From a virus (taxonomy: Duplodnaviria > Heunggongvirae > Uroviricota > Caudoviricetes), in IMG/VR virus record IMGVR_UViG_3300046786_000370, positions 15,927-79,926 of that record: a stretch of DNA of 64,000 bases; one strand, 5' to 3'. Numbering within the stretch: the first letter of the stretch is position 1; each line of letters starts with the position of its first letter. Below, one piece after another: positions 13,384 to 63,986 of the stretch. The translations under genes and the position numbers were made by a program. Under the pieces are notes generated by a model. It had not been told where the DNA came from, ran no database searches, and saw nothing but the letters and a program-made list of their open reading frames with translations.

Positions 13384-13412
13384 ATTATAGCAGAATATTC
13401 AATTTGTGTCAA
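13384..13412 (-). promoter_or_regulatory. sigma70-like promoter TTGACAcaaatt-N17-TATAAT
   Basis: Exact -35 and -10 hexamers with a 17-nt spacer, upstream of the 12965..13360 gene. Confidence 0.6.
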
Positions 13413-13413
13413 T

Positions 13414-13665
13414 TTATTTGGATAAGTTATAAAGCATGATTGCTTCGTCTAAGGCCCGTTTAATTGTGGGATTAGTTTTTGCGGCTCTGCGTATGTTGCC
13501 CCACAATTTGCTTTCTTCTATCTCTTCCCTAAGGCTCTTAGAATCTTCGCTTTCCCATGCTAGCTTTCTACTTTGTACAGGACTGCCGGGCTCACGCATA
13601 TAAACGGTTTTGCCTCCATCTGGACTTTCGTAGATAACGGCTTCTGTAATTTTATTAACTATCAT
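13414..13665 (-). CDS. hypothetical protein
   Basis: 83 aa ORF. Confidence 0.35.
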   Translation of the reverse strand: MIVNKITEAVIYESPDGGKTVYMREPGSPVQSRKLAWESEDSKSLREEIEESKLWGNIRRAAKTNPTIKRALDEAIMLYNLSK

Positions 13666-14063
13666 TTATCGTCCCACGCTTGCGGAGTTGTCATTTGCTC
13701 ATTGTAAGTCTTAATAAGATCTTTCCAATCACCGATGTCCACTCTGAAATTAAAGTCCATGCCACGATCGCCTACTGTAATACGAACAGCATTGAAATGA
13801 ACTTTCTTCATGACAAACCAATATTGTCCAGCTTTTGATTTCAATTGAACTCCCCATTGTTCATTGGCAGGGTCAATTATATCATAGCCAGCAAATATAT
13901 GTTTAATTTCTTCATGAGTTAGTTTGTACGTAAGTACCAAACTTTTAGTAACCATGATACTCAAATCACAACGATCTGAATTCTTATAAGCATAAAGCTT
14001 GAATGTATCTTTAAATTCTTTAAACACTGAAACTACTCCCGCAACCGCAACTTGTTTGTGCAT
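13662..14063 (-). CDS. hypothetical protein
   Basis: 133 aa ORF. Confidence 0.4.
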
Positions 14064-14343
14064 TAGGATTTTGAATTACAAAATTACTACCTTCAAAATC
14101 TTCTTTGTAATCAATTGTAGCACCTTCTAAGTACTGCATACTCATTGCGTCAACAAGATATTTAACACCCTGCTGTTCAATGATAAAATCATCTTCATTT
14201 TGTACTGTTTCAAGTGTAAAGCCATACTGCATTCCGCTACAGCCTCCACCTTGAACGAATACTCTTAAACTAATGTTCGGATTATTTTCTTCTTGTAGTA
14301 TTTCTGCTACTTTTGTGTTCACGTTTTCTGTAATTGTAATCAT
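14020..14343 (-). CDS. Fe-S cluster insertion protein (IscA/ErpA/HesB family)
   Basis: GGGCSGMQY...CGCGSSF signature. Confidence 0.8.
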
Positions 14344-14344
14344 T

Positions 14345-14863
14345 TTAATTCTCCACTATCATCACTAAATGTAATCTTTTTTCTGTACTTCCATTCATGA
14401 AAGTATGCGGTTTAGTTGTATCCACCCACGTTGTACGACCATCTGCCGGCAAATGAAACATGACCATTGGATCTGTAATTAAAAAATTACATTGTGTATT
14501 AGTTACCAATGGCAAATGTAGTCTGGGACTATAGTCTTTGTGAATACTATAACATCCTTTTTCACGGGCTAACATTATTCTTGCTCTATACACAGGCACT
14601 GCCAGCCATTTAAAATAATCATCTATAGCAGTGCCTATTAGGCTAGGCTGTAAATGACAGAATTTATGTTCCCAGTCTTTAGTTTTAGCTGTACTATGTC
14701 CTGTGCCAGCTAACCAATTATCCACTGAAGGATCATCAGTTTGAATAGAAACTTGCCCGTCGGATCTATATTCCCAATCAACATATAATTTTGCTAGTTT
14801 TACGCATTGCTCGACTACTTCATTATAGCGAGGATACGCTGGCTTAAATTCTTTGTATAACAT
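14345..14863 (-). CDS. small 2OG-Fe(II)/cupin oxygenase (paralog family)
   Basis: [13 protein letters not shown], an HxD...H arrangement. Confidence 0.45.
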
Positions 14864-14871
14864 ACAATTAT

Positions 14872-15372
14872 TTATGAAAGTATGATATCCACTGCGGCAT
14901 CTTCACTGATATAATCATCAGTAGTAAAATGCGGATATTTCGCAAGAATTTTTGCTGTGCCTACATAAGCAAACCATCTATAATCAACTTTGCATTTTGC
15001 TACTTCAGCATAATGCTCTGACAGATATTTTAATGACGATTTCTCAGCATGATAATATCTAAGATGTCTATATTGCATACCAGTTAGTGAGTCATATTGT
15101 GCAATTCTACTGCCCACATTGATAATTCTTTTTTCAGGCAAATCTATCCAAGCATTTAACATATCAATTAACATATATGATTGTGCAAAATTTTCTGTGG
15201 CATTGTTTATAAACACGTCACAGTCGTAGCTTTCGTCGACAATTCGTTGCCTATCTTTTTTCTTATTAATGTCATAACCAGTGCTTCGACTGAATCCAAT
15301 TGAATTTGGGCTCAATCGTTCGAATGCTCTGAGTCCAATTCCTTCAGTATGGCCTGTAATCGCATATTTCAT
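14872..15372 (-). CDS. SDR-like NAD(P)-binding protein (paralog of 60945..61532)
   Basis: ITGHTEGIG glycine-rich N-terminus. Confidence 0.4.
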   Translation of the reverse strand: MKYAITGHTEGIGLRAFERLSPNSIGFSRSTGYDINKKKDRQRIVDESYDCDVFINNATENFAQSYMLIDMLNAWIDLPEKRIINVGSRIAQYDSLTGMQYRHLRYYHAEKSSLKYLSEHYAEVAKCKVDYRWFAYVGTAKILAKYPHFTTDDYISEDAAVDIILS

Positions 15373-16040
15373 TTATGTGCTATCCTTATACTAACGCCTA
15401 ATTTAGATTTACTCATCATTCTTCCTGTAGAATGTATGTGCTGACTGTCAAATACTATAGCTGATCCCGGAGTCCAGGAATATGCTGTTCCGCTCATGCT
15501 ATAAAAATAGTCACGTTCGAAGTGTTGACTGTCTATGTGTTGCCAAATTTCCTGGGGTAATTCAGTATTTGTACCACCTTGGAAAAATTCCCCATCACAG
15601 GGCCTTGAATTTGTTTTCTTATTACTGTAGAAATCACCGTCAATTTCAAAATTGCCTAGCCATGTAATATTCTTACCCTGCCAACGTTGATCAAATACAA
15701 TAAACTTTTGATCCTCTCTGGGCTCAAATCTTTGAATTGGTATAACAATATTCAACCATGCTTTATCTTCTATAGCGTCACAATGTGGAAAGTAACTGTG
15801 ACTGTGCTTATAAAAGTTGTCGCCTACAATTTTGTAGGGTTCATTTATGTTCAATTTGCGTTCAATCAAATTTGTAGCAAATTCATTGAATTCAATTTCG
15901 TCAAATGGCAACAATACTTTGTCCATGCCATGGCTGAATATGTGGTCATGACTGAGAAATATTTGCTTTAAATATTCTAATTCTGAATCAGTGACAATAT
16001 TTTCAACTAATTTGTGCATGTGTTTATTTAAGCCACGCAT
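15369..16040 (-). CDS. hypothetical protein (possible oxygenase)
   Basis: PHCDAIED...QHIHSTG looks like a loose HxD...H motif. Confidence 0.35.
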   Translation of the reverse strand: MRGLNKHMHKLVENIVTDSELEYLKQIFLSHDHIFSHGMDKVLLPFDEIEFNEFATNLIERKLNINEPYKIVGDNFYKHSHSYFPHCDAIEDKAWLNIVIPIQRFEPREDQKFIVFDQRWQGKNITWLGNFEIDGDFYSNKKTNSRPCDGEFFQGGTNTELPQEIWQHIDSQHFERDYFYSMSGTAYSWTPGSAIVFDSQHIHSTGRMMSKSKLGVSIRIAHK

Positions 16041-17043
16041 ACAATTTTTCAGCCTGGCCCTGTGTATGCCATTTATTGTCCCAATCTACGGCCCATTTCT
16101 TATATAAATCTATGCTTTTTAATTTGTCTGTGGTTAAATTAAAATATGGAAGATTTTTATCCCAATATTGTTCTGCGATATGCCTGGGAAATAGATTCAA
16201 TCCTGCGTGTTTCGGATATACAATTGGAAATGTATGTACAGGCAATTTCCAAAATTCCACAGTCTTCGGATAATCAGCTATAGTCCACGGCGTTACGCTG
16301 TAACTTATACTGGCATTACTGTTGTTTTTAATTATATCAACAGAGTCTAATAGTTCATCCCAGCTTGCGTCACGTCGAAACCATTCATAAGTGTCTTTGT
16401 AGCCTTCTATGCTAATGCTACATTGTACACTGGCCCAGCCTTTCCACAGATCCAATCTGGGTTTGATCAATCCATTTGTAATATAAACTAATTTACAATG
16501 ACTTCTATCGTAGTTACTTAAATGTTCTAATATTTTATAATGTGCGGGATCTAGAAATGGCTCGCCACCTGTGAATTTAATGTGATCCAAATTAGGCAAC
16601 AATTCGACTAATTCGGCCAGGAATTCATCTGTAACATCAAACGCATTTATAACATGTGGACTAATTCCCAACAATTTGCGCCAGCCACTGCTACGCTCGG
16701 GTCCACAATGAGCACAAGTCAATTGACATTTGTTGCTCATTTTAAATTGTATTGCACGAATTTCTCTTTGTTCACTGATAAATTTAGTGCCTGTACGCAG
16801 ACTCTGTTGTCCGTGTTCTTCTACTTGTCTACATCTATAACAAGCATATTCAGTGTCTGCGGTATAGCCTGTAGAATTTAAGTTTTCTCTCAGTGTTAAT
16901 AACTTAGGATGATTAAATGCTGTTTTAATTCCATTTTGAATTGGACTGATTCTGGCAGCATTGTCTGTTTCGCCACAGCAGGGTCTTGTCCAACCATCTG
17001 TTTCGATGCTAACCATGTTTTCTACCCAAGCACATTTTTTCAT
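16024..17043 (-). CDS. radical SAM enzyme
   Basis: CQLTCAHC (Cx3Cx2C) plus FTGGEPFL; Cys-rich N-terminal extension. Confidence 0.65.
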   Translation of the reverse strand: MKKCAWVENMVSIETDGWTRPCCGETDNAARISPIQNGIKTAFNHPKLLTLRENLNSTGYTADTEYACYRCRQVEEHGQQSLRTGTKFISEQREIRAIQFKMSNKCQLTCAHCGPERSSGWRKLLGISPHVINAFDVTDEFLAELVELLPNLDHIKFTGGEPFLDPAHYKILEHLSNYDRSHCKLVYITNGLIKPRLDLWKGWASVQCSISIEGYKDTYEWFRRDASWDELLDSVDIIKNNSNASISYSVTPWTIADYPKTVEFWKLPVHTFPIVYPKHAGLNLFPRHIAEQYWDKNLPYFNLTTDKLKSIDLYKKWAVDWDNKWHTQGQAEKLYAWLK

Positions 17044-24284: not shown

Positions 24285-24323
24285 TATTATAGCAAAGTAT
24301 TTGAATAATGTCAACTAAATTGG
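24285..24323 (-). promoter_or_regulatory. sigma70-like promoter TTGACAttattc-N-TATAAT (distal)
   Basis: 17-nt spacer; would give a ~300-nt leader before the 23968 gene. Confidence 0.4.
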
Positions 24324-25483: not shown

Positions 25484-26032
25484 TTATTCCTTTATTAAAA
25501 AGTCTGGATCAGTTTTAAATCGAAAAGTTAACAACCCTCTTAAATGAGTTGTATTGTTCCATGCGCTGTGTGGTTTAGTTATATTAAGTAATACCGGACA
25601 AAACGATTTGTATTCTCCGATCTTTTCAACATACTCAGGCTCTACTTTAGAGTATACGACTTTGTCTCCATCTCTATGATTGATTTCTACTCGACGATCG
25701 CCAAGGAATTCATATACTCGTGTTGTAGAGGCGCCAGCCAAAGGTGTCAATGGTATATTGATAGCCAATTTTGGCCCGTCTTGCTCTTCATAGTCTACAT
25801 GAATATCTTGTTTAAATCCTGGTCTATGATTTATTAAAAATATCTGTGTGACTACTAGATCGTGTTTACCAAACCAATCAAACAAAGAAGGCATGAGATC
25901 TTTGACTTCTGATACTTCCATTTGCTGGAATTTGGATTCCGTTAATGGCCATTTATTAAGAAAATTATCAATGTCTTGTTTGTTATAATCAATGTACAGA
26001 TACTTAAAATAAAAGTCCGAGTTCTTTTGCAT
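25484..26032 (-). CDS. small 2OG-Fe(II) oxygenase-like paralog
   Basis: IHVDYEE...NIPL...PHSAWN...R. Confidence 0.45.
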   Translation of the reverse strand: MQKNSDFYFKYLYIDYNKQDIDNFLNKWPLTESKFQQMEVSEVKDLMPSLFDWFGKHDLVVTQIFLINHRPGFKQDIHVDYEEQDGPKLAINIPLTPLAGASTTRVYEFLGDRRVEINHRDGDKVVYSKVEPEYVEKIGEYKSFCPVLLNITKPHSAWNNTTHLRGLLTFRFKTDPDFLIKE

Positions 26033-26844
26033 TACGTTCTTTTCTTAATCAAATCAATGACAACGCCGCTGGGATCTACTTCCCACCAATTAACACGACC
26101 GAAATGGTATGCCTTTACGTCACCGTGGTGATTGTTATGCCAACATTCGCCTAATACCAATGGAAATAATATAGGTGCGTTGACGCTATTATCTCCGGTT
26201 TCATAATTTTTATAACCTAAGCTTTGGAAATGATTCAAGCAATTAGTTGCCGCATAGCTGTGAAATGTGATAAAGCTAGGAACTATGACAAACCAAATCC
26301 AAAAATCAAAACTAACTAATGCTATGATTAAATTTACTGCCCAGTACATTGGCATATAGTATTTGTGGCAAAATGCGTAAAAAGGTACTTTAAGTAAATC
26401 AATGATGTCTTTATAGTTAATGTCTTTTTCTTCAACTTTCCACAACCATAAGAACCAACTAGTAGCAATACCTTTTTTAGGTGTATGCGGATCTTTGTCT
26501 CCATCGCTATAAGGATGATGTAAGTTTCTGTGTATAGCGGTCCAGAATATAGGACTGCCCTGTCCTGCTAGCATGGCAAAGAATAGTATAACATATTTAA
26601 TAGGTGCCCAAGTTTCAAAACTCTTGTGACTAACATATCTATGATATCCGATAGTCACGCCTAGAACCATGATACAGAAGTAGCCCATGGCCAAATATAA
26701 CCAATAAATGTTTTGCCAATAACCCATGAATGCGCCAACAATAGCACTTACTGCAATTAAATTCATAGGTATTAAACCTCCCCATAAATTTTTATACTTA
26801 AAGGTTAAAGTTATAAATTCTTTGAATGTTAATTTGTTACGCAT
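26032..26844 (-). CDS. membrane fatty-acid desaturase
   Basis: His boxes HRYVSH, HRNLHH and WHNNHH. Confidence 0.75.
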   Translation of the reverse strand: MRNKLTFKEFITLTFKYKNLWGGLIPMNLIAVSAIVGAFMGYWQNIYWLYLAMGYFCIMVLGVTIGYHRYVSHKSFETWAPIKYVILFFAMLAGQGSPIFWTAIHRNLHHPYSDGDKDPHTPKKGIATSWFLWLWKVEEKDINYKDIIDLLKVPFYAFCHKYYMPMYWAVNLIIALVSFDFWIWFVIVPSFITFHSYAATNCLNHFQSLGYKNYETGDNSVNAPILFPLVLGECWHNNHHGDVKAYHFGRVNWWEVDPSGVVIDLIKKRT

Positions 26845-31804: not shown

Positions 31805-33235
31805 TTATTTTAATTGGTCGAAGATGTAATTAGAAATAAATGCATGATGTTTGATGCCCATTTCTTTCCAATTTAAATCTACTACCTTTGTGTTTCTTAC
31901 TTCGTCGTAGTCATAGCCTAAATTAGCATAGTTAGGTATGTACCATGTCATAGGCTTTACCATGTTTATTCGCCTGTCGTCATAGTTTAATTTTTGAGCA
32001 ATCGTGATGGCATCTTTAAAATTGTAAGTGCTGTGTTCCCAATAGTCTGTGTCTGCGGGATTAGGAAATGTTATTCCATAGTCAGAGGCATGTTTTTCAA
32101 ACTCTGTGCCTTTGCCGTTTTTATTTAAAAACAATTGAAGGAAGAACCAATTGTCTGCTACTTTGTTTTCTAACAACCATTCCTGTGTTTCTAACAATGA
32201 TTGTTCTGTTTCATAAGGCAAACCTGCGATAAAACTACAAGTAATAGATACGTCGTCTTTCCAAATATCTTTTAGTTTTAATAAAAAGTCTTTGCCGTAC
32301 TTGCCATTCCAGCCTTTGCCTAGACAAGAACTTGCTTCTGGATGAAAACTTTCTATGCCAAAATATGTTGATTTAAGTCCACTTAATTTTAACAGTTCAA
32401 TGGTATGCGGATTAACGCCGATGACATCTAATCTATTATAACCCAGCCATTCAAATTTAAACGGCATTTTTTCTGCAATTTTAGCCAGCCTTTCTATTTT
32501 AGATGAGCTTTCATTTACAGTATCATCCATGATTTGATATCGAGTAGTGCCAAACATTTCATAGTTACGCAGTAATTCATCTTCGATATGAGACTCATCT
32601 CTTAGATAAGTATCTACCTTTTTTCCCACTAATGGATAGCTACAAAATTTACATCTAAACTGACAGCCACGTGCAAGTTCTATGGGCAACGATTCTCCTG
32701 GCTGAATACTAGCATCATCATAAAAACATGCTGTTAAATTTTTAATATCAAAAGGTGAATATGCTGGTGTATTTTCAGTCTTTTCATTCATGTACTTTAA
32801 AAGACTGTCTTCGGCAAAGCTAACAAATTTTCTCCATTTAAATCTGTCTTCTTTACCCAAGTGGCCTACACCTGTATGGCCTCCTAATAACCAATCTAAC
32901 TTTGGATGTTTGATTTGTAGAATAAATCTAGCTGATTGTACCCATTGCGGTTCATAATACTGATCTTGATTTAAGTCGTAGTAATCTTTATGTTGCCTAT
33001 TTGAGTAAGCAGTAGGCTTCCAAAAAGTTGAACTAACGCCAATGGCAATAGTTTCAGGACCAATATGTTTTTGTGTAATTTCTATTAGTCTTCGAGTGGG
33101 TATAGCATGACAAAAATCAATAACCTTTGCGGTATATCCGTGCTGTCGTAGCCAATGAGCTAGAATGTGCGGTCCGATTGGTCTAGTTACGTTTACTGGT
33201 TCGTTAAAACTATTCCATAAAATTATTTGTGCCAT
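31805..33235 (-). CDS. B12-binding-domain radical SAM enzyme
   Basis: CQFRCKFC (Cx3Cx2C) at residue ~190 after an N-terminal B12-binding-like domain. Confidence 0.65.
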   Translation of the reverse strand: MAQIILWNSFNEPVNVTRPIGPHILAHWLRQHGYTAKVIDFCHAIPTRRLIEITQKHIGPETIAIGVSSTFWKPTAYSNRQHKDYYDLNQDQYYEPQWVQSARFILQIKHPKLDWLLGGHTGVGHLGKEDRFKWRKFVSFAEDSLLKYMNEKTENTPAYSPFDIKNLTACFYDDASIQPGESLPIELARGCQFRCKFCSYPLVGKKVDTYLRDESHIEDELLRNYEMFGTTRYQIMDDTVNESSSKIERLAKIAEKMPFKFEWLGYNRLDVIGVNPHTIELLKLSGLKSTYFGIESFHPEASSCLGKGWNGKYGKDFLLKLKDIWKDDVSITCSFIAGLPYETEQSLLETQEWLLENKVADNWFFLQLFLNKNGKGTEFEKHASDYGITFPNPADTDYWEHSTYNFKDAITIAQKLNYDDRRINMVKPMTWYIPNYANLGYDYDEVRNTKVVDLNWKEMGIKHHAFISNYIFDQLK

Positions 33236-33741: not shown

Positions 33742-33816
33742 TGGAAGAGCCACGGGGAATCGAACCCCGCTTCTCAGGATGAAAACCTGATGTCCTAACC
33801 GATAGACGATGGCTCC
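33742..33816 (-). tRNA. tRNA-Glu (TTC)
   Basis: Loop TTTTCAT, T-arm GCGGGGTTCGATTCCCCG. Confidence 0.65.
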
Positions 33817-33897
33817 ATATAGAAACACACTAGAGTCCCTCGGGCTATACTACCCAAAGTTAACATATCCCTATGACAACTACAATGTGTTTTTATA

Positions 33898-33973
33898 TGG
33901 TGGAGGAGACAGGGATCGAACCTGCGACCTATTGCTTGCAAAGCAACCGCTCTCCCAACTGAGCTACACCCCC
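33898..33973 (-). tRNA. tRNA-Ala (TGC)
   Basis: G3:U70 pair, loop TTTGCAA, D-arm GCTCAGTTGGGAGAGC. Confidence 0.65.
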
Positions 33974-33983
33974 ACATAAAAAT

Positions 33984-34058
33984 TGGCTCCAGAGGCAGGG
34001 ATCGAACCTACGACCAATTGATTAACAGTCAACTGCACTACCGCTGTGCTACTCTGGA
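33984..34058 (-). tRNA. tRNA-Asn (GTT)
   Basis: Loop CTGTTAA. Confidence 0.6.
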
Positions 34059-34435
34059 ATATTGAATTTGTAAGTAGTATCACCATCGTTATTGATACCA
34101 TTCACCCAAGTATATAAAGCCGGCTGGGACTCGGTACGTCACTTGGGATACTAGTCCAGTTAGCAACCAATCTGCGGAGATCTTCCGATCTCCCGGGAGT
34201 TGAACCCGTCCCCTTTTACTATTTCGGTAGTTCGAACTTACCTAGATAGCGTGACATTCTCTTGCTGACACTTACAAAAATGGCGGGAGCCTAACTATCT
34301 TGTTGTTAGCAAGCCTCGTTAGATTGTCTCGAATAGGCAAGTTTATACACCCATCAATCATACTATAGTGTCATCACAGTTAACCCCACTGTGACTAGAT
34401 TGACAGGGACTCAAACCTATCGTCTATCCCATAAT

Positions 34436-34512
34436 TGGCGCACCGGAGGGGACTCGAACCCCTGGCCTCCGCCGTGACAGGGCGGCGTTATAACCAACTT
34501 AACTACCGGTGC
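34436..34512 (-). tRNA. tRNA-Asp (GTC)
   Basis: Loop CTGTCAC, acceptor GCACCGG/CCGGTGC. Confidence 0.65.
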
Positions 34513-34602
34513 AAAATCGTATCGCAATCGGATCAGTACTCCGATATCTATACTAAGGTACCTTAGTATTGTTTTGTTCTAGTATTAAACTATGCGAATT
34601 CT

Positions 34603-34692
34603 TGGTGGAAGACTAGGGAGTCGAACCCTATGACCGTATTACTACAGTCTACAGATTAGCAATCTGCTGCATTACCGTCCTGCCCGTCTTCC
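34603..34692 (-). tRNA. tRNA-Ser (GCT), type II
   Basis: 90 nt with a long variable arm; loop TTGCTAA. Confidence 0.6.
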
Positions 34693-34915
34693 GGTAACCA
34701 TATTAAAACACACTAAGGGAACTAGAACAAATACATAGCACCGTCTGCTGGTTCTTTGTTTTCGTCATTACTGCCTAACTGCCCGTCACGTTCCACTGCA
34801 CGGCTTACACCGTCGTCTATACGCTTCATGTAACTCTATGCGAAGCCAGTCCGTCAACTGGTTATACTTCCATAGAGTACCTAACGGATTAAGTAACCCT
34901 TAATATATTTTAATA

Positions 34916-34992
34916 TGGTGCCCAGGGCGAGACTCGAACTCGCAAAATTTGGCTTCTAAGACCAACACGTATACCAATTCCATCACCTGGGC
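34916..34992 (-). tRNA. tRNA-Leu (TAG)?, type-I-like
   Basis: Loop CTTAGAA but a short variable arm, which is unusual for Leu. Confidence 0.45.
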
Positions 34993-35053: not shown

Positions 35054-35082
35054 ATTATACATGTTCAGTTAATTTGTGTCAA
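35054..35082 (-). promoter_or_regulatory. sigma70-like promoter (TTGACAcaaatt-N-TATAAT) upstream of the tRNA island
   Basis: 17-nt spacer; a second copy lies at 35138..35166. Confidence 0.55.
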
Positions 35083-35137
35083 CTAATTCTTTTTACTTTT
35101 GTAAAAGTCTTTGCTAACACATTTAACTAACTTAAAT

Positions 35138-35166
35138 CTATTATAGCAAAATAATTGATTTGTGTC
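35138..35166 (-). promoter_or_regulatory. sigma70-like promoter module, tandem copy
   Basis: TTGACAcaaatc-N17-TATAAT. Confidence 0.55.
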
Positions 35167-35318
35167 AATTATCTTCCTTGAATTTTTCGCAGTAGCTTTA
35201 GCCAATAAAACCTAAAGCCACGGAATGTGAGTATGTCAAAGTCAATATTGACCATTGGTTCTTTGGGAATACTTCCATAAGCTTTGTCTAATGTGTCAGA
35301 TATTTTTTTTGGCATACG

Positions 35319-37875: not shown

Positions 37876-37904
37876 ATTATACAACCAAAACCAATTTGTG
37901 TCAA
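37876..37904 (-). promoter_or_regulatory. sigma70-like promoter TTGACAcaaattgg-N-TATAAT
   Basis: 17-nt spacer. Confidence 0.55.
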
Positions 37905-41290: not shown

Positions 41291-41305
41291 TCTATTATTT
41301 ATAAG

Positions 41306-41380
41306 TGGTGCCACAGACTGGACTCGAACCAGTAACACAAGAATTTTCAGTCCTCTGCTCTACCATTGGAGCTACTGTGG
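41306..41380 (-). tRNA. tRNA-Phe (GAA)
   Basis: Loop CTGAAAA, D-arm GCTCCAATGGTAGAGC. Confidence 0.65.
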
Positions 41381-46494: not shown

Positions 46495-46586
46495 TGGTAC
46501 CCCCGGCGGGAATCGAACCCACATGAACCAATTATCTGTTGCTTACGGGATATAAATCCGCCGTTTTACCGTTAAACTACAGGGGC
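46495..46586 (-). tRNA. atypical 92-nt tRNA-like gene (anticodon loop TTTATAT, anticodon TAT?)
   Basis: Good acceptor, D-arm and T-arm, but a 22-nt extra region without a clean variable stem. Confidence 0.35.
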
Positions 46587-47040: not shown

Positions 47041-47062
47041 TATTATTACACTTTGGTCTCCT

Positions 47063-47200
47063 GGACCCTAATTTGCTCCGGTGTGCGATCATAACTAATT
47101 TCAATAGATATCCAATTAGATGAAGGCACGAAGCCCATCTGCTTGGCAGTATTAAAATGTTTATGACATACAATCGTTTGCATCTTTTTATTTCCTTTAC
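47063..47200 (-). CDS. hypothetical small protein (45 aa)
   Basis: ORF with AAAGGAAATAAAAAG RBS; promoter module at 47225..47253. Confidence 0.35.
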
Positions 47201-47224: not shown

Positions 47225-47253
47225 ATTATATACTTATTTAGTCTTTGTGTCAA
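47225..47253 (-). promoter_or_regulatory. sigma70-like promoter TTGACAcaaag-N-TATAAT
   Basis: 17-nt spacer. Confidence 0.5.
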
Positions 47254-47359: not shown

Positions 47360-47407
47360 TTTGTTTAACTTGTATCTATTGTATGTTATTTACTAGTTTG
47401 TGTCAAA

Positions 47408-48166
47408 TTATTTCTTAACTTCTACTAATTTAATTAGCCAAGCTAATGGATCTATTTCCCAGAACTTGTGTCTAGTACTATAATTTTTTGCATCACTATG
47501 GTGATTGTTGTGCCATGCTTCGCCTAGTATGATGGGCCACAACCAAGCATTGTTTCTACTTTGATCTTTTGTTTCATAATTCCTATAACCGTGTGTGTGA
47601 CCAAAATAATTGAAGTTGCTGGTACTAAGCTGAATTAACATAGCAGGAACAATCCAAGACCAATATAAAAATTCCAAGTCAATGATTCCTACAACAACTA
47701 CAACGGGCAACAATAAAAGCATATACCACTTATGTATGAATAACTGTGCGGGAGTCATTAGTTCCTTGACTAAGAAAATCTTCATTTCACCTTCCTGTTT
47801 TTTCATATGACCAAAGCCAAATAGTTTATAGCCAAGGTTGTAAGGGCTATGTGGATCTTTTTCTTCATCACTGTAAGCATGATGTAGTCTATGTAAATAA
47901 ACCCAACCTAATACACTACCGCGGCCCGCCAGTAATGCTATAGCAGAAAACAACCAATGAAGAACAGGATTTAATTCAAAGCTTTTGTGGCTATAATATC
48001 TATGTAACGTCATCCATATGCCCAGGATGTTTAATACATAGAAACTAATTAACATCAGTAATATATTACTTAATGTGTAGTCAACAAAGAATAAACCAAC
48101 AATACTTACTATGAAAAGAAAAATTGTTAGTATTCCTATATTTCTACTAGTAGATCCAAATGTCAT
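47408..48166 (-). CDS. membrane fatty-acid desaturase
   Basis: His boxes HRYYSH, HRLHH and WHNNHH. Confidence 0.7.
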   Translation of the reverse strand: MTFGSTSRNIGILTIFLFIVSIVGLFFVDYTLSNILLMLISFYVLNILGIWMTLHRYYSHKSFELNPVLHWLFSAIALLAGRGSVLGWVYLHRLHHAYSDEEKDPHSPYNLGYKLFGFGHMKKQEGEMKIFLVKELMTPAQLFIHKWYMLLLLPVVVVVGIIDLEFLYWSWIVPAMLIQLSTSNFNYFGHTHGYRNYETKDQSRNNAWLWPIILGEAWHNNHHSDAKNYSTRHKFWEIDPLAWLIKLVEVKK

Positions 48167-48942
48167 TTGCGTATAACTTCTATTATTCTAGCTGTGGGAT
48201 CAAACTCCCACCACTTGCCGCTAGTACCTGTACCAAAATCATAGTTACCAGGACGAGCATGATGGTTGTTATGCCATCCTTCGCCAAATGTAAAAATAGC
48301 GTTGATCCATAAGTTACGACTGTTGTCAGTTGTTTCGAAGTTTCTATAACCCCACTTATGGTTCATATAGTTGCTGGTTGTACTACTCCATACGCTGATA
48401 ACTGCAGGAATAATAACAACGTGAATGGCTAACACAGGATCAATCAATGCCCATAATAGCGTCCATAACAATAGTAAACCAAAGTACCATTTATGCATAA
48501 AAACATGATACTTGTCAAAAATTAAATGACGAATCTTCCATTTGTTTGGTTCATAGTCATATGCGGCTACCAGCATCTTAGGACCGCTGACTAATGGGCT
48601 ATGCGGATCGCCAGGCTTATCGCTGTATTTGTGATGGTCTCTGTGCATACCTACCCATCCAATGGCACTACCTGTAAATGCCAAGGCGCCCCAAGTAGAA
48701 CAAAAGTATTCCCAGAATTTAGTTGTCTTGAAACTTTTATGTGTTAGTAGCCTATGAAAGCCAATGCTAATACCAAAACAGCCGATACCTACGTACATTA
48801 GCACACTTAATAGCCAAAGCGATGCTATTTGTGGAAATGAAAATGCATAGAGTAAAACAATTACTGTTGCAGTAATTTGAACGCCGGGTAAGTATTCTGT
48901 GTTAGACGCAAATACGTTGTTAATGATTCTTTTATAGGACAT
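48163..48942 (-). CDS. membrane fatty-acid desaturase
   Basis: His boxes HRLLTH, HRDHH and WHNNHH; ATGA-coupled to the neighbouring desaturase. Confidence 0.7.
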   Translation of the reverse strand: MSYKRIINNVFASNTEYLPGVQITATVIVLLYAFSFPQIASLWLLSVLMYVGIGCFGISIGFHRLLTHKSFKTTKFWEYFCSTWGALAFTGSAIGWVGMHRDHHKYSDKPGDPHSPLVSGPKMLVAAYDYEPNKWKIRHLIFDKYHVFMHKWYFGLLLLWTLLWALIDPVLAIHVVIIPAVISVWSSTTSNYMNHKWGYRNFETTDNSRNLWINAIFTFGEGWHNNHHARPGNYDFGTGTSGKWWEFDPTARIIEVIRK

Positions 48943-49267: not shown

Positions 49268-49296
49268 ATTATAGCAGTTCTTCGTATTTGTGTCAA
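49268..49296 (-). promoter_or_regulatory. sigma70-like promoter upstream of the Leu/CAT/Arg tRNA trio
   Basis: TTGACAcaaatacg-N-TATAAT with a 17-nt spacer. Confidence 0.5.
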
Positions 49297-54878: not shown

Positions 54879-55676
54879 TTATTTGTTCAACATCAAACCA
54901 GTCATGTTACTAGGAACAATGATAGTATTAACCTTACCAGCTTTGATACCTTCGGAGATGTTAAGCGCGGCTTGTGCGTTCATGTAAGCGATAGAGCTAG
55001 CACTTTGGTTACTCAATGCCTGCATACGACGAGCTTCTGCTTCAGCTGTCTTAACTTCAACTTCTTTCTGCTTGAGCTCGTTCTTAGCACGAACCAAGTC
55101 GTTGGCACTTTGAACCACGCTATCAGCAGGAACAACATTACGAACAAGAACTTGACTGATAGTCAACGAACCATCTAGCTTTTCTTCTACCAATGCCTTT
55201 TGCATCAGTTCTTTAACTTTGGTTTCGATAGATTGACGATTGTCTGCCATATCCAACGCTTCGTAATCACGTGCGGCTTTATAGATACTATTGCGAGCAA
55301 TTTGCATGACATAGTTATACATCAAGTAAGTGTCGCCTTTGTGTTCAATGTGAAATGCTCGGCTCTTAGAGTTATACAACTCCGCGACCTGTGCTTGGTT
55401 CAAGTTATAGATAACCACAGCATCAAAGTCTTTCATTGTGCTATTGTCTTTGGCCAAAGGAGTCATGTCATCAAGTTTGACGTTAACGTCTTTGACTGGG
55501 AAAGTCATAACCTCGCCGATGATAGTTTGATTCCAAGAACCAGGCAAGAGTTCTTGTGTACTAACTTGTTTACTGATATCACGACGGAGACCAACCTCGC
55601 CGGTTTCAATGCGAGTACAACCTGTTGCGACTACAACTGCGGCCATAATCAAACCAATTTTAAAAACGTTTTTCAT
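54879..55676 (-). CDS. SPFH/band-7 domain lipoprotein
   Basis: Lipobox VATGC followed by an SPFH-like coiled-coil region. Confidence 0.55.
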   Translation of the reverse strand: MKNVFKIGLIMAAVVVATGCTRIETGEVGLRRDISKQVSTQELLPGSWNQTIIGEVMTFPVKDVNVKLDDMTPLAKDNSTMKDFDAVVIYNLNQAQVAELYNSKSRAFHIEHKGDTYLMYNYVMQIARNSIYKAARDYEALDMADNRQSIETKVKELMQKALVEEKLDGSLTISQVLVRNVVPADSVVQSANDLVRAKNELKQKEVEVKTAEAEARRMQALSNQSASSIAYMNAQAALNISEGIKAGKVNTIIVPSNMTGLMLNK

Positions 55677-55773: not shown

Positions 55774-55950
55774 TAGAAGAGAATTACTAAACCAAACATT
55801 AGCAAGATTGCTACTGTAGAACTAATTATAGCTTGAACTGCTATTTTTGTCAAGTTAAGTGCTTGCTTACCTGACATCTTTTGTACTGCGATCATGCCCA
55901 AATAAACGAGCACACTCAGTACCAAAAACAAAAATACTACTCTAATCATA
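55774..55950 (-). CDS. small membrane protein (58 aa)
   Basis: ORF MIRVVFLFLVLSVLVYLGMIAVQ... with two TM segments, immediately downstream of the SPFH gene. Confidence 0.3.
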
Positions 55951-56622: not shown

Positions 56623-56653
56623 AAAAAATTCCCCGTTGTTTAACTATACTTGT

Positions 56654-56682
56654 ATTATAGCATAACGGGGAATTTGTGTCAA
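56654..56682 (-). promoter_or_regulatory. sigma70-like promoter TTGACAcaaattcc-N-TATAAT
   Basis: 17-nt spacer. Confidence 0.55.
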
Positions 56683-57039: not shown

Positions 57040-57342
57040 TTACCTAGTCATACAAGAGTTATAGTAATTTCGTTCACTAGCCTGACATGTTCGTTCGTCG
57101 TAAGTTGTTCGCAATCCGCTACAATTAGCATATCTACGCAGATAAATCTCGCACTGAGCATACCTATTAGGATTAACTGGGTGTATTACTTGCTGTTCGA
57201 CATAAACCCTGGGCTGTGATTGTTGAGCCATACCGTAGCCAATAACTCCGCCGACAACGGCAGGACCTACCCAATGTTGTTGATGCCCGCAACCAGCTAA
57301 ACCGGCTACTAGGGCTGTAATTAGTGCTACTTTCTTAAGCAT
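57040..57342 (-). CDS. putative lipoprotein
   Basis: MLKKVALITALVAGLAGCG signal and lipobox; start moved to the internal Met. Confidence 0.4.
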   Translation of the reverse strand: MLKKVALITALVAGLAGCGHQQHWVGPAVVGGVIGYGMAQQSQPRVYVEQQVIHPVNPNRYAQCEIYLRRYANCSGLRTTYDERTCQASERNYYNSCMTR

Positions 57343-57694
57343 ATTCTTTCTCCTTGACATGCTTGCAGGTTCGACGAAATTGAAAACCACTACAAGTACA
57401 ATGACTTTTGCCACTATCAATGGTTACAGTATAAGTGTCACCTTTACTGCCTTTGACTGTAAAGGTTTTTACCGCAGATACTCGATGTTCCATTACTTGA
57501 TTATTTATAGAAACAATCAGTGACTTTTGAATCACTCTAAATGGAAACTCTGGATTGCCTGTGCTCAAGGCAATCTCTCCAGGTTTTAACCATTTAACTT
57601 GAACTTCATTACCTTCGAATTCAAAGAATTCGGGCTGGTCAAACATCCAAATACCAGGACGATTAAACTGCGGATTTTGTACTTTAACTTTCAT
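57335..57694 (-). CDS. SWIM-type zinc-finger protein
   Basis: C-terminal HCTCSGFQFRRTCKH (CxCxnCxH); promoter -10 abuts the ATG, so the transcript may be leaderless. Confidence 0.45.
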   Translation of the reverse strand: MKVKVQNPQFNRPGIWMFDQPEFFEFEGNEVQVKWLKPGEIALSTGNPEFPFRVIQKSLIVSINNQVMEHRVSAVKTFTVKGSKGDTYTVTIDSGKSHCTCSGFQFRRTCKHVKEKEYA

Positions 57695-57700: not shown

Positions 57701-57729
57701 AGTATAACACCGAACCCAATTTGTGTCAA
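57701..57729 (-). promoter_or_regulatory. sigma70-like promoter TTGACAcaaattgg-N-TATACT
   Basis: 17-nt spacer. Confidence 0.5.
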
Positions 57730-58239
57730 TTAAGCTGTTAAACGTTCTAATTGTTCACGTAATACTTGCTCAATAAAATCGTTGAATGTCATATCACGCT
57801 CATGTGCCATTTTAAATAGAACCATAAGTTCTTCTTCGGGCAAGTCGATGGGAATACTTACGCGAGTATCGTAGTCTTCTCCTGCCGCAATAGCCAATGC
57901 CTTTTGAATCCAATCATCGTCTGACTCTAAATCAACATAGTTGACATCGTCCCATGCTTCGTCTAATGACACATCTCGTTCGGTGCTTTCGCTATCTCGT
58001 TGATCCTTAAAGTCTGGATTAATTCTACGATAAGCACGGTCGTTTTTAAAATCATGACTTTGAACTTCGTAGACTGTTTGTGTCTTAGTATCAAAGATGA
58101 TAGTAAAACTGCGGCCATCGTGGTCGCCATCCCAACTGTCTAAGCTGTAAGCATTGGGTCCATAACATTGCCAACAAAATGTGCTACCTTCAGTAACACG
58201 GTACTCTACTACTTCCATCCATTCTTTCAACGTAATCAT
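57730..58239 (-). CDS. hypothetical acidic protein
   Basis: 169 aa ORF. Confidence 0.4.
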   Translation of the reverse strand: MITLKEWMEVVEYRVTEGSTFCWQCYGPNAYSLDSWDGDHDGRSFTIIFDTKTQTVYEVQSHDFKNDRAYRRINPDFKDQRDSESTERDVSLDEAWDDVNYVDLESDDDWIQKALAIAAGEDYDTRVSIPIDLPEEELMVLFKMAHERDMTFNDFIEQVLREQLERLTA

Positions 58240-58247: not shown

Positions 58248-59096
58248 TTAAATTTCAATAAACATTTTAACGTTCCAACCACTGTCAGGTTCGTGTCCTT
58301 CATAGCCACGTGGGTTACATACGACACGAGTTTCACCAATAACATAATCAAAACAATGATGAGTATGACCATGTGTCCACAGTTTAATCTGTGGACGATC
58401 CATAATGAATTCTTCTAAGTTGCTGTGGTAAGCACCATTCATTATGTATTCTCCCTTGTACCACTCGTGAGTGCTTTGATGACTAGGACTGTGATGCCCT
58501 ACTACAACGCACTTCTTATCTTTGTTTTCATCAACTATCAATTTAATATAGTCAACTGTTTGTTTATGACGCATAGCGGTATCAACTGGCTTTAGTCGAG
58601 TAAAATCCAAATCGTCTCGTTTGATAACTTTGTAGTCATTCATCATATCACGGACGCCATGTAGCGTCAATGGATCACCTTTGTTTAGGTCAGTCCATAA
58701 TGTTCCGCCAACAAATACTACATCGTCGATGACTTTACAGTCACGCTCTAGGAAATAAACGTTAGGAAACTTAGCACATTCTTTTCGCAGATGCGTTAAA
58801 CTACCAATCCAACGTCCATGATAAAATTCATGATTGCCTGCTACATAGATGACATGAGGGAATTGAAAACTCACACGTTTTAAGAAGTCCCTAAACCTTA
58901 AAGCAGTTTGTTGCCTGCGTCCAAGATCAGCAAGGTTGACATTGCTGTACATACCGTAATCCATTTCTGGATGGTCGTGGAGATCTTGAGCAACCATAAT
59001 ATCTCCACTAAGGATGAGAACATCGCAGTTCTCATCATTTGAGATATTAACGTCACTGAACTCTAAATGGAGGTCTGATACTACTTTAATTTTCAT
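58248..59096 (-). CDS. calcineurin-like metallophosphoesterase
   Basis: DLH...GDI...GNHE...GHH...GHTH motifs. Confidence 0.6.
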   Translation of the reverse strand: MKIKVVSDLHLEFSDVNISNDENCDVLILSGDIMVAQDLHDHPEMDYGMYSNVNLADLGRRQQTALRFRDFLKRVSFQFPHVIYVAGNHEFYHGRWIGSLTHLRKECAKFPNVYFLERDCKVIDDVVFVGGTLWTDLNKGDPLTLHGVRDMMNDYKVIKRDDLDFTRLKPVDTAMRHKQTVDYIKLIVDENKDKKCVVVGHHSPSHQSTHEWYKGEYIMNGAYHSNLEEFIMDRPQIKLWTHGHTHHCFDYVIGETRVVCNPRGYEGHEPDSGWNVKMFIEI

Positions 59097-59107
59097 AGTT
59101 CATTATA

Positions 59108-59524
59108 CTATGAAGTTGCTGATTGTGTCAACCTTTGTTGGCGTTCAGCTTCGTGTTCATCGCAGAGTGTTTTGATCCAACCACCACTACGTTGATAGCC
59201 AGGCCGGCCACATGTTTCACAAGTATTTCCTGCCCATACTTCTGCCATAGTGACCATGCCTCGAACAGTATCGTCGCCACCATCGTAGTAAAACCGTAGG
59301 CCGCCAAACTTTTCTTTAATTTGTGCCACAACTACTTGAGGAACAACTTCAGAAGTTTTATTCTTCCAATCTAGATGATGTTGAATATTAGCACAAAGGT
59401 TAGTCAGGATCGGCCACCATCCTTCACCACAGCAAAATCCGCCGTAGGGCTCGCTAAACATTTTTGGAAAACGAGTTTCCATTTGTTTAGCGAACTCATC
59501 ATACTTTTCAAATTCGTCAGTCAT
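59108..59524 (-). CDS. hypothetical Cys-containing protein
   Basis: 138 aa ORF with CCGEGW...CETCGRPG. Confidence 0.4.
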   Translation of the reverse strand: MTDEFEKYDEFAKQMETRFPKMFSEPYGGFCCGEGWWPILTNLCANIQHHLDWKNKTSEVVPQVVVAQIKEKFGGLRFYYDGGDDTVRGMVTMAEVWAGNTCETCGRPGYQRSGGWIKTLCDEHEAERQQRLTQSATS

Positions 59525-60698: not shown

Positions 60699-60780
60699 TA
60701 CCTCAAAAGTTTAAAAACACAGCCTGATTATACGATGATTCAGATGGGCTGTCAACATCTAAATTCTTCAATAAATAATG

Positions 60781-61532: not shown

Positions 61533-61849
61533 TATTCTAATCCGTATTTTTTAAGTTCATCGGAATCTGCAACAATCACAGCATCTTTAAATCTGTCGGC
61601 ACACTTCTTTTTGATCTCATTGATATCAGAACCTTGTGCAATAAACCTATCAGTTTCTCTTTCATAAAGATAAAACACACTTCCATGTTTTTCTACATTA
61701 ACATGAATAATTTTATCCTTAAGCTTCTTTGTCAAGTCGTCGATTTCTTCTTGAAGTATCTCGTTTTTTGCTTGAAGATAAAATAAGATAAACTTAGATG
61801 CTAGCCAAACTAAAGCGCAGATGATAATAAATTCTACAGCAAAATCCAT
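61532..61849 (-). CDS. hypothetical protein with an N-terminal TM segment
   Basis: 105 aa ORF. Confidence 0.4.
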   Translation of the reverse strand: MDFAVEFIIICALVWLASKFILFYLQAKNEILQEEIDDLTKKLKDKIIHVNVEKHGSVFYLYERETDRFIAQGSDINEIKKKCADRFKDAVIVADSDELKKYGLE

Positions 61850-62436
61850 TATCTGCTTTCAATAACTTTGTCTGCCAAACCATATTCCATTGCTTGATGT
61901 GCGCTCATGAAATAATCTCGTTCCATGTCACGAGCAAGAGTTTCGTAGTCTTTGCCACGGCTATTATGTCTGACATAAATGTTAGTAAGATTCTTCTTCA
62001 TTTCCAAAATCTCATTAACTTGGATCTGCATATCCGTAGCTTGTCCACGTGCTCCGCCACTGGGTTGGTGAATCATGTGTCTTGCGTTGGGAAGGATGAA
62101 CCGTTTACCCGGCGCTCCGGCTTGGGCGAGTAAACTACCCATTGAGCAGGCCTGCCCCATAACATAAGTGGATACATCTGGTTTGATAAACTGCATTGTA
62201 TCATAAATTGCCATCCCGGCTGTGACACTACCACCTGGGCTGTTAATAAACATTGTAATATCTCTGCTGGCATCTTCGCTTTCCAAGAATAGAAGTTGAC
62301 CTACAATAAGGTTAGCCATTTGATCATGGACTTCGCCTTCCAATAAAATAACACGATCTCGCATTAAGCGACTATACAAATCCATGGCACGTTCACTGTT
62401 GCCAGTACGTTCAAGGACCATTGGGACTAGACTCAT
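61849..62436 (-). CDS. clpP: ATP-dependent Clp protease proteolytic subunit
   Basis: GQACSMGS (catalytic Ser) and HQP (catalytic His) blocks; 195 aa. Confidence 0.8.
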
Positions 62437-62611: not shown

Positions 62612-62628
62612 TTAAATGATTTTGCCAA

Positions 62629-62964
62629 TTATGCTACCACCTCCAGCATATTAGCAGGGACGTTCCACTTTGAAACACCATTCTCTAGAACTGTAATGTT
62701 TTTAATTTTAATTTTTAGCACTGAGCCAGTATGAACTCGACCTGTTTTAGGATGAGTGAACTTAACAGTACTACCTACTGTCACATTTCGCTTGGTTTGC
62801 TTTGTAAGCTGAGCCCGATAGTATCGAATTGCTTCGCCAATGCTAGTCAATTCTTCGTTGGTAAAAGAGCCAAACATAATAGCTTGATTGATTTCTTTAA
62901 TAGACAACATGTCAAATTCCTTATTTGCGAGTAACTGTAGCGATAGCAAAACCTTTGAGTACAA
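62629..62964 (-). CDS. hypothetical protein
   Basis: 111 aa ORF. Confidence 0.4.
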   Translation of the reverse strand: MYSKVLLSLQLLANKEFDMLSIKEINQAIMFGSFTNEELTSIGEAIRYYRAQLTKQTKRNVTVGSTVKFTHPKTGRVHTGSVLKIKIKNITVLENGVSKWNVPANMLEVVA

Positions 62965-63100
62965 TCACAGCACACCATGTATCAAGGTTATAAGGGATTG
63001 CCAAAGCAGGGAAAATTGTATTCAATGCCCATAGTGTAGCAAATGGACCAAGTACAATTAGAGCAAGTGCGACAAGAATAACAACTAGTTCTTTCATTTT
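62927..63100 (-). CDS. small membrane protein (58 aa)
   Basis: ORF MKELVVILVALALIVLGPFATLWALN... Confidence 0.3.
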
Positions 63101-63109
63101 AGTCTCTTA

Positions 63110-63268
63110 AGAGTTAATAGTTTCAAATGGGCTAAGTTCGTCTTGCTCAACTTCCTCAAATACCCAAGTAATAGGTACGTCAAGTTCTCGAGCAATGGTC
63201 ACTGGCAAGTAACCTTCTTCTAGCATATCTTTAATTTCCACGGACAGTTCTGACATTCTGCTCATTGT
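63110..63268 (-). CDS. hypothetical small acidic protein (52 aa)
   Basis: ORF MSRMSELSVEIKDMLEEGY... Confidence 0.3.
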
Positions 63269-63274
63269 TTTTCC

Positions 63275-63538
63275 TTAGGCAAATTCATACATATACTGAG
63301 CAACACTAGGATCCAATTGGATCAACTGTTTTGCGGCAGTAGTCAATTCTTTGTAACGACGATCGACTTCTGCTCGGGGCAATTCGCCATCGCAGGTCAA
63401 GTTCTCAGGACTCAAACTAGAATCAATCATTTCTGCGACTCGACGACGACCTTGAGCAGTTTGAATTTCATACTGTTCGCCTTTGAAAAAACTGTTCCAG
63501 TGATTCTTGTCTGCGATGAATTTGTTTAGTGCTTTCAT
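63275..63538 (-). CDS. hypothetical protein
   Basis: 87 aa ORF. Confidence 0.4.
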   Translation of the reverse strand: MKALNKFIADKNHWNSFFKGEQYEIQTAQGRRRVAEMIDSSLSPENLTCDGELPRAEVDRRYKELTTAAKQLIQLDPSVAQYMYEFA

Positions 63539-63552
63539 TATGAGCTCCTTAA

Positions 63553-63930
63553 TTAAGCGGCTTTACGGAAATATTGATAGGGCAAACCCAAAGTCCAAGC
63601 AAGGTAATCATTGTCGCCTTGCGTACCTTCAGCTTCGTGAATCCAACGCATAGCCATTGCCATGTCCTTGGCACCAATGCTGATCAATTCAGCACAACGG
63701 CGTTCGAACTTTTCAATTGCTTTAGCTTCTTCGATGCCTTGCTGGATATCGTTGGCTTTCATAATCTCAACCAACTCAGCAAACTCTTGGTCGAACTGCT
63801 CCAGGGTCCAAGTAGAAGTATCAATGTGACGAGGACGAATGCCATGGGCATCTTTGTACATATCAGAAAAAGTGGCTTGGGCCTGCTCCAATGGAGTGTA
63901 ATCTTCCCAGCTCTTAAATTCGTTGCTCAT
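63553..63930 (-). CDS. hypothetical protein
   Basis: Start at MSNEFKS with TAAGGAG RBS; perfect promoter immediately upstream. Confidence 0.45.
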   Translation of the reverse strand: MSNEFKSWEDYTPLEQAQATFSDMYKDAHGIRPRHIDTSTWTLEQFDQEFAELVEIMKANDIQQGIEEAKAIEKFERRCAELISIGAKDMAMAMRWIHEAEGTQGDNDYLAWTLGLPYQYFRKAA

Positions 63931-63947
63931 CTTGTGCTCCTTATTAC

Positions 63948-63986
63948 TTACTATACTTCGTATTATACAGTAGGACCCAATTTGTG
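63948..63986 (-). promoter_or_regulatory. consensus sigma70 promoter TTGACA-N17-TATAAT
   Basis: Minus-strand sequence TTGACAcaaattgggtcctactgTATAAT, followed about 30 nt later by TAAGGAG and the ATG. Confidence 0.65.

Follow-up and report, generated by a model that had tools for sequence, protein, structure and literature searches.

The question raised by the 64,000-nucleotide stretch of viral DNA analysed here (the window; positions 15,927 to 79,926 of IMG/VR record IMGVR_UViG_3300046786_000370, Caudoviricetes) is why one promoter-like sequence is repeated so many times along its minus strand and which polymerase reads it. A first-pass annotation had described a conserved early-promoter module of roughly 45 bp, reused at least 12 times, in which CAAATT follows the -35 hexamer. 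Our analysis indicates that the repeats are probably early promoters of the host sigma70 type with maximal consensus, joined to stop codons and carried on shuffling cassettes, and that a YAAA(TT) block beside the -35 hexamer is probably kept by selection and homogenisation.

All 12 of the sites listed earlier were recovered by pattern search and direct extraction, every one on the minus strand, with the first T of TTGACA at 13412, 35082, 35168, 37904, 38705, 47253, 47406, 49296, 56682, 57729, 59131 and 63990. Ten positions had been exact, while 35166 was corrected to 35168 and 63986 to 63990. Eleven sites showed TTGACA-CAAA with the 17-nt spacer originally described, and 59131 was an outlier with CAATCA and an 18-nt spacer. 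The exact string TTGACACAAATT was present at 7 of the listed sites, and one further variant, absent from the earlier list, was found at 55853 (TTGACAaaaata-N11-TATAAT). Enrichment was evaluated on minus-strand counts against 200 first-order Markov simulations. TTGACA-N17-TATAAT occurred exactly 12 times on the minus strand and never on the plus strand, compared with a simulated mean of 0.005, and the listed sites other than the exact ones differed by one base or had an 18-bp spacer. The window elements thus have the layout of sigma70-type promoters, a -35 TTGACA and a -10 TATAAT separated by 17 ± 1 bp. TTGACACAAA was counted 11 times against 0.225 in the simulations, and TTGACACAAATT 7 times against 0.025. 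A generic promoter scanner found eleven 12/12 matches between 33 and 64 kb, on the minus strand only, and its weak matches in the window were no more frequent than chance. In a crude word count, TTGACACA, GACACAAA and CACAAATT were the most over-represented intergenic 8-mers of the window, with none comparable next.

The description as a 45-bp module was overstated for the window, where only (TAA)TTGACA-CAAAtt and TATAAT(A) are kept; it holds for close relatives, which keep the whole 45 bp. The 11 copies with a 17-nt spacer share T-A/T-A-A, TTGACA, CAAA, mostly TT, then TATAAT and mostly A. Their mean pairwise identity at positions -29 to -24 was 0.86, a value inflated for the first four bases (CAAA) and partly circular because the compared sites had been chosen for carrying CAAA. 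The other 11 spacer bases gave 0.28, compared with 0.27 for random sequence. What is repeated in the window is really an extended -35 block plus a -10 hexamer. A longer shared spacer (GGnTT..GGT) left traces at 37904, 57729 and 63990 only, and 59131 looks like a separately evolved promoter. The idea that CAAATT goes beyond a generic sigma70 site was borne out, since YAAA followed the -35 hexamer in 11 of 17 strong window sites and in 0 of 41 other near-consensus promoters from the bacterial control loci described below. Perfect promoters without CAAA coexist with the modules at 24314, 24020, 36113, 60755 and 10422, and the canonical TGn of an extended -10 was found at only 4 of 13 sites. No conserved UP element or AT-rich tract was found upstream of the modules, where only TTAA is conserved and nothing further upstream is informative. 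Because stop codons abut the -35 hexamer, this TTAA is largely the stop codon of the preceding gene.

The element belongs to one group of phages. A scan of IMG/VR for TTGACACAAATT-N11-TATAAT returned at least 120 loci; among 120 listed, 39 carried 2-8 exact copies, always on one strand and with a median spacing of 378 bp, and at least 33 shared proteins with the window. The same pattern was then searched in 185,579 bacterial and archaeal genomes, which also gave at least 120 loci. None of the 120 bacterial matches listed had more than one copy per locus, and they came from diverse, mostly Firmicutes genomes; with only single copies scattered in this way, the scan could not serve for host identification and was used as a negative control. 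At positions outside the searched pattern, the phage matches were conserved as tTAA-TTGACACAAATT-ggtTttggtg-n-TATAAT-AcatacaTa, whereas the same positions carried no information in the bacterial matches listed. The motif is therefore characteristic of a large clade of uncultivated IMG/VR phages. To sample this clade independently of the motif, 80 loci (L241-L320) were retrieved through a metallophosphoesterase protein of the window, a marker with 372 related stretches in IMG/VR. They showed the same architecture with sublineage-specific variants: (C/T)AAATT-G(A/G)TTTTGGTGT in L241-243, CAAAAT-CGGTTTGGTAC in L312, GAAATT in L285, and ATAAAT-CATTTTGGGTA in L307, L308, L314 and L316. The copies in L314 and in L307 are near-identical over at least 45 bp, including the first transcribed bases, and the core shared by the family is TTGACA-nnAAAT-nnnTTTGG-nnn-TATAATA. 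Megablast of 30-50 kb against 50,697 phage records gave tRNA matches only. By sequence comparison the phage appears to have no close cultured relative, the nearest being PA5oct-like jumbo phages at no more than 50% identity, and searches of the searchable literature for the motif strings returned only irrelevant primer matches. The family would thus provide a promoter model for big uncultivated phages that form a large, apparently abundant clade and have no close cultured relative, and would mark the variable, probably early, part of their genomes.

As had been noted, every copy is co-oriented with the minus-strand open reading frames (ORFs) or transfer RNA (tRNA) clusters that it faces. The copies at 13412, 37904, 38705, 47253, 56682 and 63990 precede ORFs led by a ribosome-binding site (RBS), with the ATG 17 to 35 nt past the predicted transcription start site (TSS). 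The tRNA clusters lie behind 35168/35082, 47406 and 49296, with tRNAs at predicted TSS+12 to +141. Upstream, a stop codon ends 0-1 nt before the -35 hexamer at 13412, 37904, 38705, 47406 and 57729. The same junction is common in the family: at 90 of 209 module-type sites an ORF of 40 codons or more ends with its stop codon directly against the -35 hexamer (gap 0). At a control position 37 nt upstream, a stop codon was found at gap 0 in 0 of 209 cases and at any gap up to 7 nt in 10 of 209.

The relation between the -10 hexamer and the ATG gave further evidence. It had been proposed that the copy at 57729 (57701-57729, minus strand, -10 TATACT), whose -35 hexamer directly abuts the stop codon of ORF 57730-58239 (gap 0), yields a leaderless transcript. 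This agrees with the sequence, since the ATG at 57694 lies exactly 6 nt past TATACT and coincides with the predicted TSS. The predicted leaderless gene (57335-57694, minus strand) encodes a 119-residue SWIM zinc-finger protein. Its 6-nt phasing persists in L241, L096 and L312 with the bases in between differing (ttacat, gctaat and tatagc), and in L285 the gene has a leader with an RBS instead. A second case in the window had been missed, namely the atypical promoter TTGACAcaatca with an 18-nt spacer and TATAAT (59102-59131, minus strand), which overlaps the end of the upstream ORF and stands 5 nt before the ATG at 59096. It precedes the predicted leaderless gene of the 282-residue metallophosphoesterase (58248-59096, minus strand), whose match to a PHROG family starts at residue 1 and whose N-terminus, MKIKVVSDLH, is conserved among relatives. 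L306 and L318 also have a -10 hexamer 5-6 nt ahead of this ATG. In most of L241-L320 the gene has neither an RBS nor a promoter of its own, and its ATG overlaps or abuts the upstream stop codon (gatataaATG, gaggactaaATG). Because the upstream arrangement differs among relatives in this way, the metallophosphoesterase would be translationally coupled, leaderless or independently promoted according to lineage.

To evaluate this phasing over the family, 241 distinct TTGACA-N16-18-TATAAT sites with at most one mismatch were collected from the window and the 80 protein-retrieved loci, and the first ATG opening an ORF of at least 40 codons after the -10 hexamer was scored. The distance was 5-6 nt at 28 of the 241 sites (6 nt at 23, 5 nt at 5) and 3, 4, 7 or 8 nt at none of them, with a second mode at 29-35 nt. 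About 12% of the strong promoters of the family, before at least 10 different genes, are thus predicted to be leaderless. These genes include a 327-residue 5'-3' exonuclease (Pfam match from residue 3), an NT5C-like nucleotidase, a UDP-glucose dehydrogenase-like protein and the SWIM zinc-finger protein, and the domain matches of the candidates start at residues 1-3. Such phasing would make sense only with transcription starting about 7 nt past the -10 hexamer. Both the promoter assignment and leaderless translation are supported by it, and the distances act as an internal, sequence-only validation of the promoters. The evidence that the genes starting at 57694 and 59096 are leaderless can be regarded as strong at this level. 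About one in eight strong family promoters is predicted to make a leaderless mRNA, those of the flap endonuclease and the metallophosphoesterase included. The mRNA of lambda cI from the promoter P_RM is leaderless, and the predicted transcripts here likewise begin at the A of AUG and have no RBS. The lambda case concerns one regulatory gene, whereas here a recurrent design at strong promoters is predicted. Work on leaderless mRNAs is represented by Brock et al. (2008), as cited in PMC5312081.

The cassettes are also mobile among relatives, and synteny with them is mosaic. The promoter at 37904 and its 63-residue ORF stand beside the 63.9-kb cassette in L241 and at other places in L058 and L004. 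L241 and L242 are distinguished by a 3.3-kb indel whose flanking homology blocks share an overlap of 22 nt (TTGACACAAATTGGGTTTGGCG) inside a module spacer. The L241 module is a chimera, its left half corresponding to one L242 copy and its right half to another. This one clean junction has the form expected when module copies recombine with each other. Another indel, of 888 bp, has one end 4 nt before a module and the other end without a module.

Taken as a promoter, the element is strongly supported by its sigma70 consensus, its restriction to one strand, its placement before ATGs and tRNAs and its -10/ATG phasing. In the explanation that we favour and consider probable, the modules would be very strong promoters read by the host housekeeping (sigma70-type) polymerase, most likely immediately after infection, a timing suggested by analogy with T4-type and PA5oct phages. 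In each, a 17-bp spacer would separate a -35 hexamer matching TTGACA perfectly from a -10 hexamer matching TATAAT(A) perfectly or nearly so, in some cases extended by TGn, and the promoter would usually be joined to the stop codon of the preceding gene (TAA-TTGACA). Because of this fusion, the variable region could be read as a chain of self-contained units, each consisting of a promoter, a short leader or none, a small gene or tRNA block and a stop codon, usually with no terminator between them. YAAA, mostly as CAAATT at -29 to -24, would be a lineage-specific feature of the promoter family. Selection may act on it, probably for an A-tract DNA shape beside the -35 hexamer that aids polymerase binding, and the conserved A-tract at -28 to -26 is accordingly a candidate spacer-proximal determinant of promoter strength. 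The block would also be homogenised as copies recombine with each other, and the same recombination would move, insert and delete cassettes between related phages. At some of the promoters, transcription would begin on the A of the ATG and yield leaderless mRNAs.

Several points weigh against this explanation. Start sites, strength and timing are all predictions, and the host is assigned a sigma70 role by the universality of TTGACA and TATAAT. To our knowledge, a requirement at -29 to -24 is not accounted for by any established contact of RNA polymerase. Hexamer variants particular to each sublineage would also be expected if a lineage-specific DNA-binding factor co-evolved with them. Among the relatives at 70-76% protein identity, many have ordinary, individually different strong promoters and no extended module in the sampled 20 kb, so the extended element would be dispensable for promoter function as such. 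Finally, the ends of homology blocks fell just upstream of the -35 hexamer 15 times against 1.5 expected, and downstream ends of any block fell 10 times in the same interval; as these are mostly gene boundaries, the enrichment was rejected as proof of module-mediated shuffling.

The co-evolution just mentioned leads to an alternative that we consider unlikely. Here the YAAA(TT) or YAAAWT block at -29 to -24 would be a recognition element for a phage-encoded or phage-modified factor co-evolving in each sublineage, which would create a private promoter class on top of the host consensus, coupled to leaderless early mRNAs. The factor would set these promoters apart from those of the host, and it might be a repressor turning off early transcription, a co-activator or a polymerase carrying a modification like that made by T4 Alt. 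The extra consensus positions of T4 early promoters, linked to Alt-modified polymerase, provide a precedent. Conservation of -29 to -24 next to random spacer bases fits such a factor, as do the absence of YAAA from the unrelated bacterial consensus promoters and the fact that CAAATT, CAAAAT, GAAATT or ATAAAT is common to all copies within a genome. Reading the sequences also showed AATTG once on each side of the -35 hexamer, at a spacing of 10 bp. However, no candidate was identified, and with the -35 and -10 hexamers already perfect an activator would be unneeded. Some copies, notably the tRNA promoters, retain CAAA alone, orthologous promoters tolerate TGAATT and TAAACT, and concerted evolution of recombining copies can account for the lineage variants without a factor. 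Of the suggestion in the first-pass annotation, a phage-specific class stands, in the sense of one phage clade with sublineage variants, and nothing was found in support of its recognition with a phage factor.

A phage sigma factor reading the modules fits poorly and seems improbable. An extended -35 could mean a longer contact by the recognition helix, and large phages often encode sigma-like factors (general knowledge; discussion in PMC7318152). However, no sigma or polymerase gene was found among the 34 larger window ORFs scanned, most ORFs not being included in that scan; the window also contains perfect TTGACA-N17-TATAAT promoters that lack the extension; and known phage middle and late sigma factors use divergent motifs, not the host consensus. 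Most improbable, and also a poor fit, is that the repeats are recombination sites, mobile-element sites or recent duplicates whose conservation reflects ancestry and whose likeness to promoters is secondary: near-identity over at least 45 bp, transcribed leader included, in L314, L307 and L242 and the recombination junction inside a module would agree with it, but the window hexamers and CAAA are invariant between randomised bases, as expected from selection on promoter elements, and the copies are strictly co-oriented with genes, phased exactly with ATGs and set at a fixed distance from the RBSs.

Promoters of the favoured kind, read by host polymerase, resemble several known systems. The promoter-early stem-loop (PeSL) cassettes were described in the T4-type phages RB49/phi1, nt-1/KVP40 and PST/T4 (Arbiol et al., 2010, PMC2839356; Comeau et al., 2014, PMC4122927). 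As in those cassettes, many copies of a near-perfect sigma70 promoter (TTGACA-N17-TATAAT in RB49/phi1) stand here before small orphan genes in variable regions, the promoter sequence varies slightly by phage lineage, and the copies are substrates of recombination that inserts, deletes and shuffles promoter-plus-gene cassettes, for which the evidence here is the one clean junction and the relocated 37904 cassette. In contrast, the defining stem-loop terminator is missing from most copies and clear only at 56682, the AT-rich upstream tract is absent because the upstream stop codon abuts the -35 hexamer, a conserved YAAA(TT) block is added, and the phage is not a close T4 relative. In T4, the early "uber" promoters, with UP, -35, TGn and -10 elements, serve early genes, orphan ORFs and tRNA genes and out-compete host promoters (Hinton, 2010, PMC2988021; Nolan et al., 2006, PMC1524935). 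They are likewise host-polymerase promoters with excellent consensus elements and additional phage-specific positions. The T4 consensus has GTTTAC at -35, an A-rich UP element at -40 to -44 and a GT-rich sequence before -12, whereas the window copies have the canonical TTGACA, an extra block downstream of it, no conserved UP element and TGn at the few sites mentioned above. T4 middle promoters also have a phage-specific element centred near -30. In that system the MotA box (TGCTT, with sigma appropriation by AsiA) replaces the -35 hexamer, whereas here no such box takes its place, TTGACA is intact and YAAAtt is unrelated.

The closest cultured relative found was jumbo phage PA5oct, with 50% identity in RNase H. 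This phage relies on the RNA polymerase of its host, and 32 of its promoters, located near mapped transcript starts, have TTGAC and TATAATA motifs (Lood et al., 2020, PMC7318152). TATAATA is also preferred by the family studied here, and no CAAATT/YAAA extension was found in the 41 kb of PA5oct inspected. Its RNase H gene lies inside an operon and is not leaderless, whereas the ortholog in the family is often predicted to be leaderless. Overall, the system belongs with the ordinary early-promoter systems of phages, as a relative of T4-type early promoters and PeSL cassettes that has few stem-loops. Its distinctive traits are the fusion to stop codons, the block on the downstream side of the -35 hexamer and the leaderless subclass. 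The use of regulatory cassettes as recombination handles is thereby extended beyond T4-type phages, in a terminator-free, stop-codon-fused form.

The scarcity of stem-loops was seen in two ways. In a terminator scan, hairpins occurred at chance frequency and none adjoined a module, and the folding of all copies other than 56682, 35082 and 35168 did not differ from that of shuffled sequence. Intrinsic terminators were thus rejected as the second half of the module for most copies. The copy at 56682 (56623-56682, minus strand), directly followed by ATG 56622 of a 223-residue ORF, lies in a terminator-like hairpin: a 12-bp stem, AAATTCCCCGTT/AACGGGGAATTT (56626-56675), encloses the -10 hexamer and the predicted TSS and is followed by a T-run. 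Folding gave a free energy of -19.6 kcal/mol (z -5.6), and in the L242 ortholog the pairing is kept, a C-to-T change giving G.U. A transcript reading through from upstream could terminate at this hairpin; one begun inside the loop would read on because it lacks the 5' arm. A hairpin in the family-consensus spacer (CACAAA...TTTGGTG) was also tried; it was weak and not preserved in the window copies. At the promoter without CAAA at 60755 (60720-60755, minus strand), ACAGCC...GGCTGT arms surround the -10 hexamer and precede a T-run. They are kept in L241 (9539), and their folding stability was not significant.

The remaining copies, all on the minus strand, are arranged as follows. The module at 13384-13412 (TTGACAcaaatt-N11-TATAAT) drives ORF 12965-13360, whose ATG is at predicted TSS+17 with the RBS AGGAG, and 1 nt separates the -35 hexamer of the module from the stop codon of ORF 13414-13665. 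A tandem pair faces the six-tRNA cluster 33742-34992: the distal promoter carries CAAATC (35140-35168), and the proximal one (35054-35082) lies about 55 nt upstream of tRNA-Leu 34992. The -35 hexamer at 35168 lies within a perfect inverted repeat, ATAATTGA-CACAAA-TCAATTAT (35140-35175), which is imperfect at 35082 (35054-35090). Folding showed 8-bp inverted repeats around CACAAA at these two copies and at no others. The repeat may act as an operator or form a hairpin. Dyad symmetry around the -35 hexamer was seen at 35168 and 35082 only, and an operator of this kind was rejected as a general feature. The full-consensus module TTGACAcaaattggttttggttgTATAAT (37876-37904) drives the 63-residue ORF 37658-37849, and the module at 38677-38705, with TATACT as -10, drives the 68-residue ORF 38430-38636; their -35 hexamers touch the stop codons of ORFs 37905-38180 and 38706-39071, respectively, with a gap of 0.

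The module at 47225-47253 (CAAAGA) is ahead of the small ORF 47046-47183 and of the long tRNA array from 46586, and the one at 47378-47406 (CAAACT, -10 TACAAT) has tRNA-Thr 47359 about 12 nt past its predicted TSS and the stop codon of ORF 47408-48166 1 nt before its -35 hexamer. The copy at 49268-49296 (CAAATA, with a TGn extended -10) lies about 42 nt ahead of tRNA-Leu 49219 and two more tRNAs. The additional variant (55825-55853) is 142 nt upstream of ORF 54879-55676, which matches a PHROG family annotated as lipoprotein, and the module TTGACAcaaattgggtcctactgTATAAT (63962-63990), preceded by TAA, drives an ORF with ATG 63930 and the RBS AAGGAG. Among the perfect sigma70-type promoters without CAAA, that at 60727-60755 has an ortholog in L241 that also lacks CAAA, and that at 24286-24314 is similar to those at 24020 (about 290 nt downstream), 36113 and 10422.

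The window looks like part of a large uncultivated phage of freshwater type. Its ORFs are nearly all encoded by the minus strand, and it carries 34 tRNA genes, several of duplicate specificity; an Rfam scan of the window found these 34 tRNAs and nothing else. One of them (46495-46586, minus strand) is an unusually long tRNA of 92 nt, called by ARAGORN as tRNA-Ile with anticodon TAT and recognised as tRNA in Rfam too. Between two tRNA islands lie the overlapping paralogous ORFs 47408-48166 and 48163-48942 (minus strand, 252 and 259 residues), which both match phrog_35201. The 393-residue ORF 39180-40361 is on the plus strand, antisense to all its neighbours, and neither Pfam nor PHROG gave a match to it. 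The related loci L013, L029 and L032 contain it as two full-length copies (51-56% identity), and it may be a mobile gene or a homing endonuclease. There are three separate radical-SAM proteins on the minus strand (16024-17043, 31805-33235 and 40358-41338), and the 476-residue one had no match by tblastn against the 50,697 phage records. Pfam matches on the minus strand also point to metabolic-type genes, namely a Na+:dicarboxylate symporter (1298-2572), a solute-binding protein (2582-3400), isocitrate lyase (6480-7691) and a fatty-acid desaturase (26032-26844). A ClpP-like/head-maturation protease (61849-62436, minus strand; phrog_94, E 8e-51) stands among the small early-type cassettes.

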